From the NCBI GenBank assembly GCA_000004985.1, contig GG738876.1: a stretch of DNA of 64,000 bases; one strand, written 5' to 3'. The stretch comes from Naegleria gruberi (lineage: Eukaryota). Position numbers and translations under genes: made by a program. Below the pieces are notes generated by a model. That model was not told the origin of the DNA and searched no databases. It saw only the letters and a list, made by a program, of their open reading frames with translations. Each line of letters starts with the position of its first letter. Within the stretch, counting starts at the first letter, position 1. Shown here piece by piece: positions 16,535 through 28,060 of this stretch.

Positions 16535-18584
16535 TTATTGCTGTTGTTCTTCGTGAGCAGAGTCGTGATGATCGTCATCCACCAAGACGTCCATGACATC
16601 TTCAACATCGTTGACCTGTTCCTCAGTGATAACCATTTGCTTTTCAGCCAAGTTTCTATAGATACCATTTGGAATCTTGACGAGTTCACTATGTTTACCC
16701 TTTTCTTTCATGACGCCTTTAACCAAGACACAGATAACATCTGAGTTAATGACAGTTGTCAATCTGTGAGCAATACAAATGGTAGTTCTTCCCTTCATCA
16801 ATTGATCCAAAGCAGCTTGAACCAAACTTTCAGATTCAGTATCTAGAGCAGAGGTAGCTTCATCCAAAAGTAAAATCTTTGGATTTTGCAATAAGGCTCT
16901 AGCTATGGCAATTCTTTGCTTTTGACCACCAGATAAAGAAACACCCTTTTCACCAAGTTGGGTTTCATACTTATCAGGTAAATCCATAATAAAGTTGTGA
17001 GCATTAGCTTGTTTGGCAGCATTTTCAATTTGTTCAGGAGTACAATTTTCCAATCCAATTGAGTAGGCAATATTATACTTGATAGATCCAGCAAAGAGAA
17101 CTGGTTCTTGTCCTACAATACCAATCACCTTGTGTAAGTACATTGGATCGATAGTTTCCAAATCGACTCCATCCAAATAAATCTTTCCCTTAACTGGTTT
17201 GTAGAATCTTTCCAATAAACCAACAATTGTTGATTTACCAGAACCAGATGGACCAACTAAAGCAATGGTTTGACCCTTTTTGATATCCAAACTAAAGTCC
17301 TTCATAACAAGAGTATTCGGTCTGGAAGGATAGGCAAAATCAACATTATCAATAACAATGTTTCCTTCAATATTTTCAGGTTGAACTCCTCCCATGAATG
17401 GAATATCTGGCTTTCTCAAAACAACCTTCAACAAGGTTGTTTCAGAAACGAATGCTTTACCATAATGAGGATAAAAAGTTGCTGATCTAGTCAAACTGAT
17501 AACACCCAAATAAAGCATACCAAAAACTTTGAATATCGAACCGAGTGTGGCTTGTTTTTCAGCTACCATATCACCACCAAACCAAAAGGCCAACGCAATA
17601 GTTCCATAAGTAACCATAGCAGCCCATCCATAAGCGAAAGAGTGAGCCATTCCCTTATAAATACCATTTCTATTAATCTTGAATAAATCCAATTTAAATC
17701 TTTCAATTTCCTTTAATTCTCCAGCCATTGAACGAATTGTCTTGATACAACCTGTAATTTCATTGGAAACAGCAGCAGAATTTTCAGTCAATCTATTAAT
17801 TCTCTTTGTGATGAGTGTAGAGATGGTGGACATGATCATGTAATTGATAAAAGTTAATGGTGATGTACTAACTAGGATCAATGCCATTTTCCAATTGACA
17901 CACATTGCCAAAATGAAACCAACAATAAATTGAATAATTTCTTGAAGGTAGAGATACAATTCGTTGGTGTAAACATCTTGAATTTTTGGAATATCTTCAG
18001 ATAAGACAACTGTCAATGCACCCAATTTCTTAATATCAAAGAAACTCATTTCTTGCTTGGCGAGGGCCTTCATATAGGCCTCTCTGAGAGCAGTACCCAA
18101 ACGAGCATTACTCAATTGCAAGAAGAAATGTTGCATGGCAAAGGCAACCATACCACAAAATGTAATAATTGTCAATTTGATAGCTGTTTGAGCGACAGCA
18201 TCTTTCAATTGATCCACAGTTGCAGTTCCAGCATTGAGGAAAAAGGCATCAATTAAATCACCTAAAATCCATTGACAACTGAAAATGCAAGTCAGATTAT
18301 TGAAATTTCACTAGAAAAACTTACATGACAGGAATTAAACCATAAGCCATACATCCAATAGCTCCAATTCCTACAAAAATCAAATTCCAACCAAATATTT
18401 GAAGAATCTTTAAGTGGTGATAAAACTTAATGTTAGGTTCTCTTGCATCTTTGATTGCAACTTCATTCTCCTTCTTTACTTTCTTATTCTTTCTTTTAAA
18501 AACGTGTCTTCTTTCCTCAGTTGATTGTTTGGTGGCAACACCAGTTCCTTGTTGTTGTTGCAATTGTACAACTTCAGTAGGCAT
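16535..18584 (-). CDS. ABC transporter, ABCB-type half transporter (TMD-NBD)
   Basis: join(18584..18325, 18278..16535). The intron is 18279..18324 (46 nt, GTAAGT..TTCAG, phase 2). Six-helix TMD features are followed by an NBD with Walker A (GPSGSGKST), the ABC signature (LSGGQKQRIAIARAL) and Walker B (ILLLDEATSALD). Confidence 0.85.
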
Positions 18585-19019
18585 AGTGAAATAATGAATA
18601 TTAGTTTTTTTTGTGATTGTTCTATATCGAAATCATTCAAACATTTGCTATTTAAATGATGATAGTACTGTGATGATCTCATATTTCGTTGCTGATTCTC
18701 TAACTTGTAGCCATGATGGTGATTCTTTTTCGTTGTTCATAATTTTAGAACAGATTACAAATTGAATAATACTCCTCAATTCGGATTCCATTCTTGAACA
18801 AGTTGCCTCAAGTATTTTCAACTGCACAGTCACGGGGAATTGTCATCATAAACATCCGAATGAAAGATGTTAGTATTCTGAAGGTTATGATGACTTTTTA
18901 TTTAGAATTTTAGCATAAAATAAAAATTATTTAAATAAAAAAATAAAAATAAAATAGAATTTAATTTTTCTTGCTCACAAACACATTCATGTGATTATTA
19001 TTAGTTGTTGTTTTAGTGA

Positions 19020-19640
19020 ACAGGCTCTTAACCTTGTGGTCGTGGGTTCGACCCCCAGTTTAAAGTAATGGCAAGACTACTTTTACCAACATTGGAAGGA
19101 GCAATTAATAGAATTCTTGCCCAGTTAATCTTTTCTGATCGTTTTTTGAGCTCTACGGTTTCCCACATAATTTAGGTTTCCAATGTAAATTAGAAAAATT
19201 AAAGAAAAATTAAAAACATTAGTCTGACTCCCAGATTTCACTCTCTGTTAGCTCATGCTCAGTTCTGCAATCTGACCATCCTACAGTGTGAAGGCTATGA
19301 TTTGCTCAGTTATCCTGCCTCAACCGGTTCACCTTTCATTAGGACCCTAGTTTCTCCTTATTCATGGGGAGGTACTATGGTCACACCGCTATTGGCGCAG
19401 ACAGAACATCGTCACCATATTGCTAACAGAGGAATGAGTCTGAAGAACCATCCCTTTGCCTGACGCTGTGGCAGAGAACCATCACAGCTACCTCCCTACA
19501 GTAGCCCAGCTTGTCTTTGTGGATAGATCTAGAGGTAGAAGAGTGGATCTGATCGTAAAAACCTGATTTGATGTGGTTCTCAAATAAAAAATATTTTAAC
19601 CTTATCATGATCAATGGATTATTTGATGACGTCATTTGGC
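19020..19640. other. Non-coding block with elevated GC, a tRNA-like B-box fragment and no ORF. It is a candidate ncRNA, SINE-like element or retroelement remnant.
   Basis: GGTTCGACCCCC at 19046-19057 is a Pol III B-box / T-arm consensus sitting in a partial tRNA-like sequence. That sequence cannot fold into a full cloverleaf. It is followed by roughly 550 bp that is clearly more GC-rich than the flanks, has no long ORF on either strand, and lies between two minus-strand genes. I could not match it to U1/U2/U4/U5/U6, RNase P or SRP consensus motifs by eye. Confidence 0.3.
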
Positions 19641-19659
19641 TTTCAAGGGATTAATAATG

Positions 19660-21713
19660 TTAGTATTGGTAAATCTTGTTAAGCCACTCCTCGCCAAAGG
19701 ATAGAGTTATTAAACAAATGAGAAAGCAGGTGGCCATCTTTCCATTCATTTCTGTGGCAAAGTATCTTCCAATGAAAGGAGATGCATCACTGAGTGAGCT
19801 TTGAAAGAGAGACATGCCACCGAATGAGTAATTTTCATCACTTAGGGACAAATGGAGAGCTGGTGGTACATAATTGCTCTTACTGCAACCTCTAAATTCA
19901 TTATCATTGTCATATGAAATGGAAAATGATAACCTAGTCGCCTCCTTACTTGGCCAGTGAATAAAAAGTGTGGCATCTAGTTTATCGTAGGAATATTCGT
20001 GACTGGTTGAGTGGTCTATTATACAGGTATTGGAAAATATGTTGGTTATAAATTGGTTGAATACACAGGGATTATTCGAGAAATGAGGTTTAAAAGCACT
20101 CACAATCTTTGTGAGTTGAGCTTGGTGTGGAAGTTGAAGCAAGTTGGCATTGTTCAATACGGTGAAGAATTTCCAATTACCAATTCTGGAAGAAACCTCT
20201 TGAGGTAGGCTAGTTCTTAACTTGTGAATGTATCTCCATACTAGATTATTGGATAATAGAGTTGACCACTCCTTGCTTAACATTGACATGAAATTCAATT
20301 CTTTTCCAGATAAGTAGCTCATGATATTAAGCACAATATCAGTGGAGAAGTATTGTTTCTGTATCTTAACTCCTTCCAAAGAAGAAATATCAAATGCTAA
20401 ACTAGTATCATCTGAATTGATAAGTTTAAAATCAATTTCCTGATCCTTAAAGAACTTTTTCAAAATCAAAGGTTGATACAGAATTTTGTGAACTTTTCCA
20501 GCTAATTCTGCAATATTATCTACAACACATGTGAAAATCTTATTGTCGTGGTTGGAGCAACAGATTTTTTGAACAGCAAGTAGAATGTGCTCATCGAGAT
20601 TATCAATATCCATCCAAGTATTAAATCTTGGAAGGATAAATCCACAAACCTGCTGAGCAATATAATCCCATGATTCTTGATAGAATTCAATATCATCAGT
20701 CGATTTTAACTTCCTCTTGATGGGAGATGTTTTGAAAACATCCTTCAATCGTTTCATATTAGATGGTAATATCTCATCACAGAGCATATCTTTTGTAATA
20801 TTGTAAGGATAATTATTGGTGACAATCTGTGAAACAATATTAATAGAAATTTCTCTAAACAATTCACTATCGGTATTTTGATGGGATTTGAAGAGTGTTT
20901 GTAATACTGTCACTTTGATCAACCTATCATAGTATATAAAATCAAGTGGATCGGTAGCAGTGTCAAATGGAGGGTTGAGAAATGCATTCTCGAGCTTATT
21001 AATCATCCTAATGAGTGAAAAATCATTCAAGTGAATTTTCCATTTTTCCATCTCAATATTTTGACAAAGGTGGGATCTTTTCAATACTTCCAATAAGCTT
21101 AATGGCGCTAAAAATGCTTTTTTAAAGAAAGGTACCGAAACCTTTTCCAATATTTCAAACGATTTTAATCATTGCAATATTCAATCTCAATAATCGATCC
21201 ACAATTCAATTGAAGGCAAACAGATATTTCCTTCCAATCTTTTGGCAAAATTTCATTAATTCTCAAAGTTACTTCCTCTTCGCTGTCATCATTCAAATTT
21301 TCATGGGTGAAATTCTGAACCTTGATCAAGTAATTAATTCTCACCTCTCGAATAACCTTACCACTACTCGATATCAATAACTCTTTCAATGATCCAATAT
21401 CCATACACACCAAATCCCAATCACTTTTATCAATATTCAAAAATCTCTTCCGACTCTGCTTCATAATAAAGTGATTTCTATAGAGTGTATCATCAAACAT
21501 CTCTAAATTAGTATCCTGATAGTATTCTATTAAAGCCCTCGAGCCAATCAATAGAAAATCAAGAGGAGGAATCTTTTCTTGATCATCATTGTACCTCTGT
21601 TTTGATGGAAATTCCCTTTTTAAAATGTTGATCAATTCATCAACACTGATCACTCTCATCCATTCCGTTAGTGATAATTGGCGATTATCATCACTAGTAT
21701 CGTGTTGAAACAT
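19660..21713 (-). CDS. Hypothetical protein. Two adjacent ORFs are probably one gene.
   Basis: Track ORFs 21165..21713 and 19660..21150 are in different frames and 14 nt apart. The downstream ORF begins with a TTG, so it has no ATG of its own. An 80-nt intron 21142..21221 (donor GTTTGC, acceptor AAAAG) joins them in phase: join(21713..21222, 21141..19660), about 658 aa. A sequencing frameshift or two separate genes remain possible. I recognised no domain. Confidence 0.4.
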
Positions 21714-23905: not shown

Positions 23906-26404
23906 TTACAGATTTTGTTGAGTGTTAGCATAATTGGAGAGTTCTTCCTTTTGCTTTTCGCACAAATCAATTAATGCTTCAGTATCACGCTTATATTTTT
24001 CTTCCAGTTCTTCATTCTTCTTCTTGAGTCTTTGAATTTCTTCCCACATGTTTTTGAATTCTCTTTGGAATGTTTGAACAGTAGCTTCGTTTTTGCTTTC
24101 TGAAAGAGCCTTAATTTCTTGAAGCTTATTCATATCAGCAATAATTTCATTTGCTCTGATTTGAAGAGTATGCAAAGGTGTATAACCATAATATTCGTAT
24201 CCATTTGGATCCTTTGCATATCTAAGCCAATATGTGGACCATAACTGTATAGAACTATGTCTTAAATCTGGATATATTACATAGGTTGTATTATCAGGAT
24301 CATAGAAAGGATTAAGATAGTTGGTACCACAACCTTCATATTCAACAAGGACGTTTCTATTCAACAAGTATGTCCACATAGAATGAGTCTTTTCATAAAT
24401 CTTGTATTTGACTCTTTCTCTTTCATTATCGAAAATAAAGTTACCAAATCTACAAGAATACAAATTATCAAGGACGAAAATCAAGAAAAGTTCGTTAAAC
24501 TCAAATGCAGTTGGATGTTGACGCATCATTTGATAAACGCAATCAATAAATTGAACAAAAATAGGACCACGTTCATCAGTGTAGAAAGTTTGACGACTAC
24601 CGTGACCAATTCTCTTTTGGAACTGGTGACCAAATGCACACCATTCCTTTTCAATGAGAACAGCAAAACCTTCCATGGTTCTACAGTATGGATCTGCCAT
24701 AATTTGGAAGAGGCAAACAACTTGACTGGTTCTATCCCAACCATCAGAACAGTGAGTAAGTACAGATGTACGTTCTCTGAAAAATACATCAACACAAAAA
24801 TGGGCAGCTGTCAAAATTGAACGAATATGTTCTAACCATTGTGTGCTTTCAACCTTGCTATGCCAATTCAATTCAACACCTCCGAAATCGTGGCAAACAT
24901 CAGCCAATCTAGCAAAGGAATTTCTAACCACGTGAATATTTTCAATATTCATGAATCTAAGTTCGCAATTCTTATAATTCTTTTCATAACCAGCACCTTT
25001 AATGACACGATTAGCTTCAGCATTAGCTCTTGGACGCAAATCGACAATCATTAATCTTTGTTGAGTCTTTTCACTGGCTTGCATAATAGATTCAATAGTT
25101 CTATAATCACCAATATGCTTCTTTGTTATTTTACCAGTAAAATTAAGACCAATCATTGGTTGAGCACATCTGGTTAATGAAAGTTCAGTCTCAGGATCAT
25201 ACCAACTCAAAACTGGAATTCTGCCTCTCGATCTGAATTCTGCAGCAGCCTTAACTTCTTCATCAGATAAATTGTTTGGAACAAGGAAAAGACTTGGATA
25301 GGTGTCACAAATCTTGTAATTTTGATTCAAAGTACAAATTCTCCAGTTTTGTTTAGACATGTTAGAAGGTGGAGTTTTGATTTGTCGGTGAGAAGTATTT
25401 TGAGGTGTTACATTATTATTACTAAGAACTCCTTGTCTTGTATATTCCTTAACCAAATCGTACACTCTCCAGCCATCAACAGGTTCAGAAGATGGTGTTG
25501 GTAAAATACTTGGTATACCATTTGATGAAGATCCATTTGATGGACTTTCCACACCTGTTGGAGAAGTAGCTTCACCAATAGTATTAGTAGTAGGTGGAGG
25601 AATAGTAAGTCTATATTTGTAAGCAAAGAAATGTTCTGGATTTCTATCATCTCTAATTGTTCTGAAAATTCTTCCTCTGGTTCCTCTTGTTGGAACGAAT
25701 GCAAATTTCACATGTTGGAAATTTTTAGTGAAAATTTCAATGAGATAGGAATAGTCCTTAGTAGAATTTGTTTTACCTCCAATCTTTTCCAATTTAGAGA
25801 TGGTACATAGAGGAATATCACTTCCTTGGAATTGATGAGGAACATCATCATAGGTTGATTGTGTTGCAGGCTTGAAAATAAGTCTATAATTTGTAATGAA
25901 TAAAACACCTTGATGCCAAGCAACTCTCTGAGGTGAAGTATGTCCATTCCACTCAAACACCTGAGTATCCTTGTCGATAATTTCTTCACCAGGAAGAAGA
26001 GCAGGACTGAGAAGTACTTTGGACATTTTAACATCTTGACTCACAACGCTATTACTTTGTGTTGTTCTATTAGTTTCATAGTAATTGTTAATAATTGATG
26101 ATCCAATTATTGTATTTGATGTTCCATCATCGGTTGATGAATCGTTATTATTGGCCATGTTGCTATCACTTCTAATTGGTCGTAAATTTTCATGATGTTG
26201 TGGAAGGGTTGAAACAGATTCAGAGTGGTGAATACTAGTATTATTGTTATTGTTGTGCGTATTAGAGGTAGTACTTGATGAAAGTGGATGAATTTGTACG
26301 CCATCCTCTACGTCATCATCATTGACTGATGAATCATCTGTATTATCACCTGTTAGATTCTCGTTAACAGCCTGTTCGCTATTGGAAGCAAAAAATCTTC
26401 TCAT
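23906..26404 (-). CDS. Myotubularin-related phosphoinositide 3-phosphatase
   Basis: Single exon of 832 aa. It has a Ser/Asn-rich N-terminus, a GRAM/PH-like segment and the CX5R active site (VLTHCSDGWDRTSQV) of the myotubularin family. The SID/coiled-coil C-terminus is typical. Confidence 0.9.
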   Translation of the reverse strand: MRRFFASNSEQAVNENLTGDNTDDSSVNDDDVEDGVQIHPLSSSTTSNTHNNNNNTSIHHSESVSTLPQHHENLRPIRSDSNMANNNDSSTDDGTSNTIIGSSIINNYYETNRTTQSNSVVSQDVKMSKVLLSPALLPGEEIIDKDTQVFEWNGHTSPQRVAWHQGVLFITNYRLIFKPATQSTYDDVPHQFQGSDIPLCTISKLEKIGGKTNSTKDYSYLIEIFTKNFQHVKFAFVPTRGTRGRIFRTIRDDRNPEHFFAYKYRLTIPPPTTNTIGEATSPTGVESPSNGSSSNGIPSILPTPSSEPVDGWRVYDLVKEYTRQGVLSNNNVTPQNTSHRQIKTPPSNMSKQNWRICTLNQNYKICDTYPSLFLVPNNLSDEEVKAAAEFRSRGRIPVLSWYDPETELSLTRCAQPMIGLNFTGKITKKHIGDYRTIESIMQASEKTQQRLMIVDLRPRANAEANRVIKGAGYEKNYKNCELRFMNIENIHVVRNSFARLADVCHDFGGVELNWHSKVESTQWLEHIRSILTAAHFCVDVFFRERTSVLTHCSDGWDRTSQVVCLFQIMADPYCRTMEGFAVLIEKEWCAFGHQFQKRIGHGSRQTFYTDERGPIFVQFIDCVYQMMRQHPTAFEFNELFLIFVLDNLYSCRFGNFIFDNERERVKYKIYEKTHSMWTYLLNRNVLVEYEGCGTNYLNPFYDPDNTTYVIYPDLRHSSIQLWSTYWLRYAKDPNGYEYYGYTPLHTLQIRANEIIADMNKLQEIKALSESKNEATVQTFQREFKNMWEEIQRLKKKNEELEEKYKRDTEALIDLCEKQKEELSNYANTQQNL

Positions 26405-26844
26405 ATTTAAAGGTAATATTATATTATTATTATTATTTGTTTGAATATATTGTGATCAAATAGTTGATCCTCTACAATCGGCAACAATATGTTCCGTTAA
26501 TGAAAAAATAGTAAGAGCTTTGTTAGTAGCACTACTCAAAGAGTGATTCGAGAGAGAGATTGTAATCAAAAATGTGATGAAACACAGCAAAATTTATGTA
26601 TTAGAGAAGCAACAGCTGTGGTGAATATTTTTTCTCTTGAAAGTCCGTACAAGATTTTGTCAAACTTTTTTAACTCTTCACTTGGTTCATAAAGGAACAG
26701 TGGAGAATTATCTTGTGGGCAGTTCGTAAGGCCCTAAGAATCTAGAAAATGTTAAATATCAGCAGCTATTCCTCATTACAAACCTAATCTTCACTTCTTA
26801 GATTTTCATATTTATTTAAGGCTAAATTTCAACATTAACAAGAT

Positions 26845-26916
26845 TCCCGTGTAGTCCAATGGCTAGGATACCTGGCTTTCACCCAGGAGGTCCGGGTTCA
26901 ATTCCCGGCATGGGAG
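26845..26916 (+). tRNA. tRNA-Glu (anticodon TTC)
   Basis: A 72-nt cloverleaf: 7-bp acceptor stem (one G-U), anticodon loop CTTTCAC, T-loop GGTTCAATTCC, and a T-run (ATTTTT) within 12 nt downstream. The plus-strand track ORF 26859..27107 overlapping it is spurious. Confidence 0.9.
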
Positions 26917-26943
26917 AATCATTTTTGGATATGAACTTTGCAT

Positions 26944-27423
26944 TTACTTTATTTCAATATTTCGATCTTTATAGATTTTCTCTATCATTTCAATACACTC
27001 AGCAACAGTCTTTGACCATGCCTTTCCTGAATCCTCTTTCCAATATTTATATCCTTCAATTGTTTCATTGGCAGGCTTTTCAGTACAATGTCCAATTAAT
27101 TCAGTAATGTCCTGTTCAAAATATTCTCTTTCAAATGGTAAATGGTAAATTATAATGTTCTTTCCAGAAAAATTTAATCCATCAACTGTAATGTGAATTA
27201 TATCTTTTCCATTAATATGGTCTATTTTGTAAATAATTAATCGAGAGGATGTATCTTGAGGTCTGTGGTGATAAGACCAGATTTGCCCTTCTTTTAATTC
27301 TTTCAATTTGACAGATTCAGCCCTTGACAAGTTTCGAATAGTTGAATATTTTGAAGAAGCGGAAATACTGGTAAATGTCTTGGGAATGGATTGTGTGAGA
27401 ATAGAACGACGAAGTGAAAGCAT
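26944..27423 (-). CDS. Hypothetical small protein (159 aa) with an N-terminal mitochondrial-presequence-like segment
   Basis: ATG-initiated ORF. MLSLRRSILTQSIPKTFTSISASSKYS is basic, hydroxylated and amphipathic, like a matrix-targeting signal. It sits between tRNA-Glu and the 5S gene. Function unknown. Confidence 0.45.
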   Translation of the reverse strand: MLSLRRSILTQSIPKTFTSISASSKYSTIRNLSRAESVKLKELKEGQIWSYHHRPQDTSSRLIIYKIDHINGKDIIHITVDGLNFSGKNIIIYHLPFEREYFEQDITELIGHCTEKPANETIEGYKYWKEDSGKAWSKTVAECIEMIEKIYKDRNIEIK

Positions 27424-27527
27424 TTTTTGAACAGATTTTAGTCTTTAATTTTCAAATCAAAATGATTTTTCACATCACGAACAAACAGAATTAGTCAAGT
27501 TGATATTTCACAATTTAAGGCATTGAA

Positions 27528-27646
27528 TGGCTACGGCCATATCACGATGAATGCACCTCATCCCGTCCGATTTGAGAAGTTAAGCATCGTCGAGCCACAT
27601 CAGTACTGAGGTTGGAGACAACTTGGGAACCTGTGGTGCTGTAGTC
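27528..27646 (+). rRNA. 5S ribosomal RNA
   Basis: A 119-nt sequence GGCTACGGCCATATCAC...GGTTGGAGACAAC...GGTGCTGTAGTC aligns along its whole length to eukaryotic 5S rRNA (box A, box C, loop E region). It is immediately followed by a TTTTTGTTTTTT Pol III terminator. Confidence 0.9.
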
Positions 27647-27869
27647 TTTTTGTTTTTTAAAATTCTCTTTTTCTAAATCCAGTTTCCCACATTCTTTCCA
27701 AACAGCTTCATTGAGCAGCACTGCTCATCATAAATAATGATTAATTAAGATTCGCTACATGTTCAATATCAATAGTTAGAATTTATTAAAATACCACAAA
27801 CATTTTGTCATTCTTCACTTCACAACAAACAGAATAAATACTATGTTCCGTATGCAGTATCTCAAAACC

Positions 27870-28060
27870 ATCTTTCTCGGCCAATTGGCTTTGATCGAGT
27901 GAAGTATCTGTTCTTTTCAGTTTAATAGCTGAAAGCAGCCACGGGTTGCCTTACTATTAACTCAATTTTTTGTAGGGATCAGGGTTTGAGCTTAATTGCT
28001 CACTTTGATTTGGTTTCAATCAGACATTGCACAAACCGTCAGATTAGGAGCCACCTAACT
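27870..28060 (+). ncRNA. U2 spliceosomal snRNA
   Basis: The 5' end ATCTTTCTCGGCCAATTGGCTTTGATCGAGTGAAGTATCTGTTCTTTTCAGTTTAATAGCTGAAA matches the universally conserved U2 5' domain (U6-interacting region, branch-point-recognition sequence GUAGUA present as GAAGTA, stem-loop IIa). An Sm site AATTTTTTG lies at about 27962-27974. The 3' end is approximate. Confidence 0.8.

Follow-up and report, generated by a model that had tools for sequence, protein, structure and literature searches.

An SRP RNA gene and a neighbouring tRNA-like fragment in Naegleria gruberi

Composition of the locus

The window considered here is a compact, AT-rich 64-kb stretch of Naegleria gruberi nuclear DNA (contig GG738876.1) in which ORFs are long. 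Within it, the block at positions 19020-19640 has a GC content of 41.1%, compared with 33.8% for the entire window. An earlier note on this DNA treated the block as a single unit, in which a tRNA-derived head is joined to a unique body, and offered it as a candidate for a novel ncRNA or for the relic of a SINE or retroelement. The block is instead a composite of separate features on opposite strands. These are a 40-nt tRNA relic on the plus strand, an AT-rich spacer of ~150 bp, a 298-nt RNA gene on the minus strand, and ~150 bp of DNA upstream of that gene. The features of the locus, with the evidence for each in brackets, are as follows.

19020-19059, plus strand: probable tRNA gene relic, 40 nt, tRNA positions 27-65 (direct reading, B-box statistics)
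19194-19216, minus strand: three T5 runs at 19212-19216, 19205-19209, and 19194-19198, read as Pol III terminators (direct reading)
19212-19509, minus strand: SRP (7SL) RNA gene, 298 nt, full length (Rfam RF00017, consensus pairs, MFE fold, compensatory changes)
19290-19336, minus strand: helix 8, the SRP54 M-domain site, with a symmetric loop of 5′ AGG and 3′ AGCA (RF00017 alignment)
19342-19384, minus strand: helix 6, the SRP19 side, whose apical loop is enlarged and non-canonical (RF00017 alignment)
19466-19509, minus strand: Alu 5′ domain with helix 2, helix 3, the UGUGAU turn, and helix 4 (RF00017 alignment)
19510-19659, minus strand: upstream region of the SRP gene, up to the stop codon of the F-box ORF (sequence)
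19660-21150, minus strand: F-box ORF, neighbour of the SRP gene
23906-26404, minus strand: ORF of a myotubularin-related protein (full-length match at 100% identity to an N. gruberi protein)

The rise in GC is limited to the RNA gene. Positions 19212-19509 reach 47.7%, whereas 19020-19211 (35.9%) and 19510-19659 (32.7%) are ordinary. A GC-rich stretch of ~550 bp had been described, and the rise itself is real but much shorter than that. The two GC-rich segments quoted as examples are both present, at 19314-19333 and 19394-19416, and both fall within the RNA gene. The accompanying statement that no ORF is longer than ~60 codons is nearly right. The longest ORF of the plus strand has 53 aa (19302-19463), but one of 70 aa lies on the minus strand (19423-19635).

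The GC-rich core belongs to a known family, Rfam RF00017, which removes the case for a novel ncRNA. The fallback named in the note was a structured RNA transcribed by Pol III, with SRP among its examples, and the RF00017 match on the minus strand bears this out. The identity was missed because the plus strand was read. Helix 8 has GGUGAACCGGUUGAGGCAGG as its 5′ strand, and the segment at 19314-19333, CCTGCCTCAACCGGTTCACC, is the reverse complement of this strand, which means that the most conserved part of the SRP RNA had been in view on the wrong strand, reversed.

Architecture of the SRP RNA

The Rfam scan of the 64-kb window, a check that the earlier note had proposed, returns a full-length SRP RNA above the gathering score. 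The match to RF00017 (Metazoa_SRP, of Rfam clan CL00003) scores 98.2 bits with an E of 1e-23, where the gathering score is 70, and it spans positions 1-299 of the 299 in the model without truncation. Standard pairs are found at 94 of the 115 ungapped consensus pairs (82%). Every element of the eukaryotic architecture can be traced in the alignment: helices 2, 3, and 4, the UGU turn, a long helix 5 in which the conserved GA and GAU bulges are present, and helices 6 and 8. The proposed check of fold and covariation has a similar outcome, with an SRP-like MFE fold and compensatory pairs relative to three metagenomic eukaryotic SRP RNAs. In the MFE fold of the minus-strand RNA (−98 kcal/mol), a long helix 5 leads to two terminal branches in the topology of helices 5, 6, and 8; the z-score is modest, at −1.59. 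Elsewhere in the window, the same scan finds a 5S rRNA, a U2 snRNA, and two tRNAs.

With a probability of about 95%, the cytosolic SRP RNA (7SL RNA) is encoded by positions 19212-19509 of the minus strand, and the tRNA-like sequence at 19020-19059 stands apart from it, as a non-functional remnant of the tRNA-Lys(CUU) type that lies outside the SRP transcript. The existence of an SRP RNA gene in Naegleria is already on record, since clear 7SL homologues were found in the nuclear assemblies of three Naegleria species with the Rfam protist 7SL model as a positive control, coordinates not being given (PMC8321541). The gene described here is an ordinary full-length SRP RNA gene of a known family, and it is single-copy within the window and the loci fetched from related genomes.

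The Alu domain is formed by short helices around the UGU turn. In the RF00017 alignment, helix 2 pairs CUG with CAG, helix 3 pairs GGCUAC with GUAGCU, and helix 4 pairs UGG with CCA. The turn reads UGUGAU and occupies 19481-19486 (RNA positions 24-29). On direct reading, the loop of helix 3 (GGAG, G15-G18) is complementary to the loop of helix 4 (CUCU, C34-U37). A pseudoknot between these two loops is a conserved feature of the Alu domain (PMC8137916), and, judged by their complementarity, the N. gruberi loops could form it.

Established SRP biology suggests how the RNA would be made and used. We infer that RNA polymerase III (Pol III) transcribes the gene and would terminate in the T5 runs after ~298 nt. 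The Alu domain, comprising helices 2-4, the UGU turn, and the pseudoknot, would fold back on helix 5 and, together with SRP9/14, slow ribosomal elongation. The S domain, comprising helices 6 and 8, is expected to bind SRP19, SRP54, and SRP68/72, of which SRP54 would capture signal peptides and bring the ribosome to the ER.

The S domain is unusual in its apical loops. Helix 8 has the core GAGG-CAG-GAUAA-CUG-AGCA at 19301-19321, in which a 3-bp CAG/CUG stem carries the apical loop GAUAA (19310-19314). This loop of five nucleotides is one longer than the GAAA tetraloop of three comparison eukaryotic SRP RNAs. The apical stem also differs, with CAG/CUG in N. gruberi and GAC/GUC or GCC/GGC in the other three, and the differences are compensatory at all three apical-stem pairs and at two of the GGUU/AAUC pairs. 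In helix 6, the stem is likewise kept by compensatory changes, with six pairs altered on both sides. In N. gruberi, C-A or A-A oppositions occupy the four pair positions adjacent to the loop, and AUGA, flanked by C-A mismatches, aligns to GGAG of the model, where the model has a closed stem. Tetraloops of the GNAR type were looked for on helices 8 and 6 of the N. gruberi RNA and are absent from both. These departures lower the RF00017 score and leave all family-defining motifs intact. They may represent variation of the lineage in non-essential detail, and they give no ground for exclusion.

The comparison RNAs derive from a scan of metagenomes with a helix 8 pattern that required the pentaloop, and then with a looser helix 8 pattern. 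The pentaloop-requiring pattern has no match in the metagenomes. The looser pattern yields 30 metagenome loci, none of them similar to the N. gruberi SRP RNA by blastn. Three of the 30 (L024, L031, and L036) are eukaryotic SRP RNAs with scores of 251-255 bits, in an Rfam scan that left out the 17 loci with a GC fraction of at least 0.60. On these three contigs, a U5 snRNA, the SRP RNA, and three to five tRNA genes lie within less than 1.5 kb (L024 496-1459, L031 74-1559, and L036 324-1449). The clusters of small-RNA genes are dense, some of the tRNAs have introns, and the contigs come from a eukaryote of low GC (38-40%).

The covariation alignment consists of the N. gruberi SRP RNA and the RNAs of L024, L031, and L036. 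RNAalifold gives the four sequences an SRP shape with 91 pairs. The figures for these pairs are somewhat inflated, as three of the four sequences are mutually close and the alignment tested also supplied the structure: 33 of the 91 pairs are changed on both sides, compared with 3-9 when the partners are slid; 94.5% of cells are paired, a share that falls to 35-46% once the 3′ partners are displaced by 1-3 columns; and none of 500 shuffles matches the observed covariation values.

Flanking DNA and gene order

At the 3′ end of the gene, the first of the three T5 runs (19212-19216) is the end of the RF00017 match, and the other two lie within 25 nt downstream. The region of these runs, 19194-19216, contains a tandem 11-mer, AGAAAAATTAA, in two copies.

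Upstream of the gene, a recognisable promoter was sought in 150 bp and none was found. The region has an A/T-rich stretch at 19583-19599 (−75 to −91 of the SRP gene) and a palindrome, TGACGTCA, at 19627-19634 (−119 to −126 of the 5′ end of the SRP RNA). The human 7SL gene has an upstream site of the ATF/CRE type. The palindrome occurs twice in the window where 0.53 copies are expected, which is not significant alone, and both it and the A/T stretch are unconvincing in statistics or position.

Other small-RNA genes of the window are clustered on the plus strand at 26788-28059, where tRNA-Glu(TTC) (26844-26917), 5S rRNA (27529-27647), and U2 snRNA (27868-28059) lie within 1.2 kb. An exact 12-mer, AACAAACAGAAT, is found at −49 of the 5S gene and −44 of the U2 gene, and these are its sole exact copies in the window. 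A second motif, TCTTCACTTC, is found at −56 of both tRNA-Glu and U2, with four copies in the window where 0.25 are expected. The two motifs may be common upstream promoter elements of small-RNA genes. Motifs common to the 5S, U2, and tRNA-Glu genes, or shared with the tRNA genes, were sought upstream of the SRP gene and none is there; the SRP gene has neither AACAAACAGAAT nor TCTTCACTTC.

The position of the gene was compared with related genomes through the orthologues of its protein-coding neighbours. After the identical N. gruberi protein, the next best matches of the myotubularin-related protein are from N. fowleri (74%), N. lovaniensis (72%), and Willaertia magna (60%). Flanks of 10 kb were fetched around the myotubularin orthologues of N. 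fowleri (L001), N. lovaniensis (L004), and Willaertia (L005), and flanks were also fetched around the orthologues of the adjacent ABC-B half-transporter in N. lovaniensis (L006) and Willaertia (L007 and L008). By Rfam, these six loci hold tRNAs and one 5S rRNA, with no SRP RNA. Gene order is lost on both sides of the SRP locus, which is at a synteny breakpoint. In the N. fowleri locus, ORFs of a non-LTR retrotransposon (RVT_1, RNase_H, and Exo_endo_phos_2) lie at 16681-20767, just past the end of the gene order common with N. gruberi. Elsewhere in the N. gruberi window, a 1204-aa ORF at 12733-16347 matches the CEMIP beta-helix and CEMIP domain X (E 1e-63), indicating a CEMIP-like protein in an amoeboflagellate.

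The flanks and the loops together bear on the question of whether the SRP RNA sequence is a working gene or a pseudogene or redundant inactive copy. The count of copies covers the 64-kb window and the fetched loci, so that a search of this extent leaves room for another copy; the position is not kept beside the orthologue of either neighbour in the relatives; no promoter motif is recognised; and the loops of helices 6 and 8 are non-canonical. An inactive copy is nonetheless very unlikely. The match is full-length with 82% of the consensus pairs standard, all conserved protein-binding motifs are intact, as are the terminators, and most of the differences from other eukaryotes are compensatory. 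The preferred reading remains that of a working SRP RNA gene.

The tRNA-like fragment and comparison with known systems

The B box reported by the earlier note, GTGGGTTCGACCCCC, is found at 19042-19056 on the plus strand. The fragment that contains it was correctly described as similar to the 3′ half of a tRNA and unable to form a cloverleaf, as it covers only tRNA positions 27-65 and is rejected by both ARAGORN and Rfam. Its anticodon stem is ACAGG/CCTTG, with three of five pairs, and the loop CTCTTAA provides U33, the anticodon CTT (Lys), and A37. A variable loop of five bases, TGGTC, is followed by a T stem of GTGGG/CCCAG (4/5 pairs) and the T loop TTCGACC. The fragment keeps the exact register of a class I tRNA, with U33, A37, G53, T54-T55-C56, A58, and C61 in place and the B box intact. 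The B-box consensus GGTTCGANNCC occurs twice in the 64-kb window, in the fragment and in a genuine tRNA-Val, where 0.11 occurrences are expected by chance. The fragment is therefore unlikely to be a chance match.

The remainder of a tRNA gene is missing. Direct reading of the fragment finds no D arm, A box, or acceptor stem. ARAGORN in its default setting calls no tRNA there, whether introns are allowed or not, and its calls at relaxed thresholds need introns of 36-251 nt. Rfam finds no tRNA at the fragment at E≤10; when truncated matches are allowed, the only match is that of the T arm to tmRNA (6.7 bits, E 0.13). A matching tRNA 5′ half was sought throughout the 64-kb window and none was found, which rules out a split or permuted tRNA there. 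The fragment and the downstream spacer (19010-19155) have no folding signal, with a z-score of −0.01 for the plus strand and −0.54 for the other strand. No further copies of the fragment or of the SRP gene are found in the window or in ~135 kb fetched from related genomes.

These properties indicate that the fragment is probably a decayed remnant of a tRNA gene of the tRNA-Lys(CUU) type, an assignment that we take from the anticodon and the register, together with a likeness to the human tRNA-Lys-CTT sequence. Among the fetched loci, which include no Lys tRNA gene, the best local match of the relic is the 3′ half of a Willaertia tRNA-Tyr. Upstream of the ABC-B orthologue in Willaertia magna is a tRNA of 93 nt with an intron (L007 8845-8937). 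ARAGORN calls it Thr(agt), and by eye the anticodon region is more like Gly(UCC) with an intron. It was considered as an intact counterpart of the relic and rejected, as its sequence differs.

The relic sits in a spacer with the terminators of the SRP gene on one side and the promoter side of the ABC-transporter gene on the other. It is on the strand opposite the SRP gene and points at the 3′ end of that gene from ~150 bp. Farther along the AT-rich spacer, upstream of the ABC-transporter gene, is a 20-nt inverted repeat at 18842-18894, which is 85% complementary, has a 13-nt loop, and contains ATGATGA motifs. A C/D snoRNA on the minus strand at 18801-18854 was considered and rejected; Rfam gives it only 14-15 bits (E 5-8), and no D box is seen by eye beside a terminal stem.

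The perfect B box, statistically unexpected as it is, and its place, with a Pol III gene on one side and a Pol II promoter region on the other, would suit a working element, either a boundary that binds TFIIIC through a B box only or a gene for a tRNA-like partner RNA of SRP. A tRNA-like second RNA of this kind is part of the trypanosomatid SRP (PMC2800229). The fragment, however, has neither a cloverleaf nor a folding signal, and in the N. gruberi SRP RNA the Alu domain is normal, helices 3 and 4 included, and needs no substitute, which makes a working element highly improbable. A more elaborate proposal is that the relic is kept as a TFIIIC site that makes no transcript and either insulates the SRP gene from the ABC-transporter promoter or recruits Pol III and that, separately, the GAUAA pentaloop and the open loop of helix 6 mark an assembly of SRP19 and SRP54 specific to heteroloboseans. 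This proposal is very doubtful.

The reading favoured by the earlier note, a tRNA-derived SINE or the relic of a tRNA-targeted retroelement, holds that the sequence at 19020 drives or marks a repeat with a body of ~550 bp. Part of its appeal could lie in an imperfect direct repeat of 18 nt that flanks the region, at 18860-18877 and 19650-19667. Of this repeat, 11 nt are exact (ATGTTAGTATT), and the two copies, 790 bp apart, enclose the relic, the SRP gene, and the upstream region. An exact 11-mer direct repeat arises in 65% of simulated 2-kb sequences of the same composition, and a target-site duplication was rejected on this ground. The relic lacks the A box and the 5′ half and lies on the opposite strand, facing the 3′ end of the SRP gene, and therefore does not qualify as a SINE head. 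A SINE or retroelement origin has almost no chance of being right. In its favour are the B box in a tRNA-like 3′ half, a plus-strand T6 run (19142-19147), and the flanking direct repeat. Against it, the supposed body is an entire SRP RNA encoded on the opposite strand, with its terminators facing the tRNA fragment, the head is without an A box and its entire 5′ half, no part has a second copy in the 64 kb or in ~135 kb of related genomes, the plus-strand RNA of 19010-19155 has no folding signal (z −0.01), and the repeat is at chance level.

The locus is thus best read as an SRP RNA gene beside a separate tRNA gene remnant. Its significance is mainly one of annotation, in that the N. gruberi SRP RNA gene is now assigned to a strand and to exact coordinates. 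The result also removes what had looked like a new class of repeat or ncRNA. The departures in the loops of helices 6 and 8 and the question of the promoter are minor points for specialists in SRP or Pol III.

Compared with the eukaryotic SRP RNAs of RF00017, the N. gruberi RNA is alike in its length of ~300 nt, its Alu domain with helices 2-4 and the UGU turn, its long helix 5, its helix 6, the AGG/AGCA of helix 8, and its T-run terminator. It differs in the loop of helix 8, which is GAUAA rather than GAAA, and in helix 6, where an enlarged, mismatched loop takes the place of a closed tetraloop. The score against the model is 98 bits, whereas the three metagenomic eukaryotic SRP RNAs reach 251-255. 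The low score reflects how far a heterolobosean has diverged from the sequences on which RF00017 is built.

Trypanosomatids and Naegleria both belong to Discoba, and in both an SRP RNA is found with tRNA-related sequence. In trypanosomatids, this sequence is sRNA-76 or sRNA-85 (PMC2800229). The trypanosomatid 7SL RNA has a reduced Alu domain that is replaced by a separate, complete tRNA-like RNA (PMC2800229, PMC8137916). The heterolobosean N. gruberi, unlike the trypanosomatids, keeps a canonical Alu domain, and the neighbouring tRNA-like piece is a 40-nt fragment with no cloverleaf. A link between the relic and the trypanosomatid tRNA-like SRP RNA is unlikely because N. gruberi has a full Alu domain and because the fragment cannot form a tRNA.

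Resemblance to tRNA-derived SINEs lies in the order of the parts, a tRNA-like sequence with a B box followed by non-tRNA DNA. The locus differs from them in the absence of an A box, a 5′ half, and repeat copies, and in that what looks like a body is a gene of its own, encoded on the opposite strand. With 7SL-derived SINEs such as Alu and B1, and with 7SL pseudogenes, the locus has in common a sequence derived from SRP RNA. Alu and B1 are without an S domain. In N. gruberi, by contrast, the S domain is whole, with both helix 6 and helix 8, and the model is matched from end to end.
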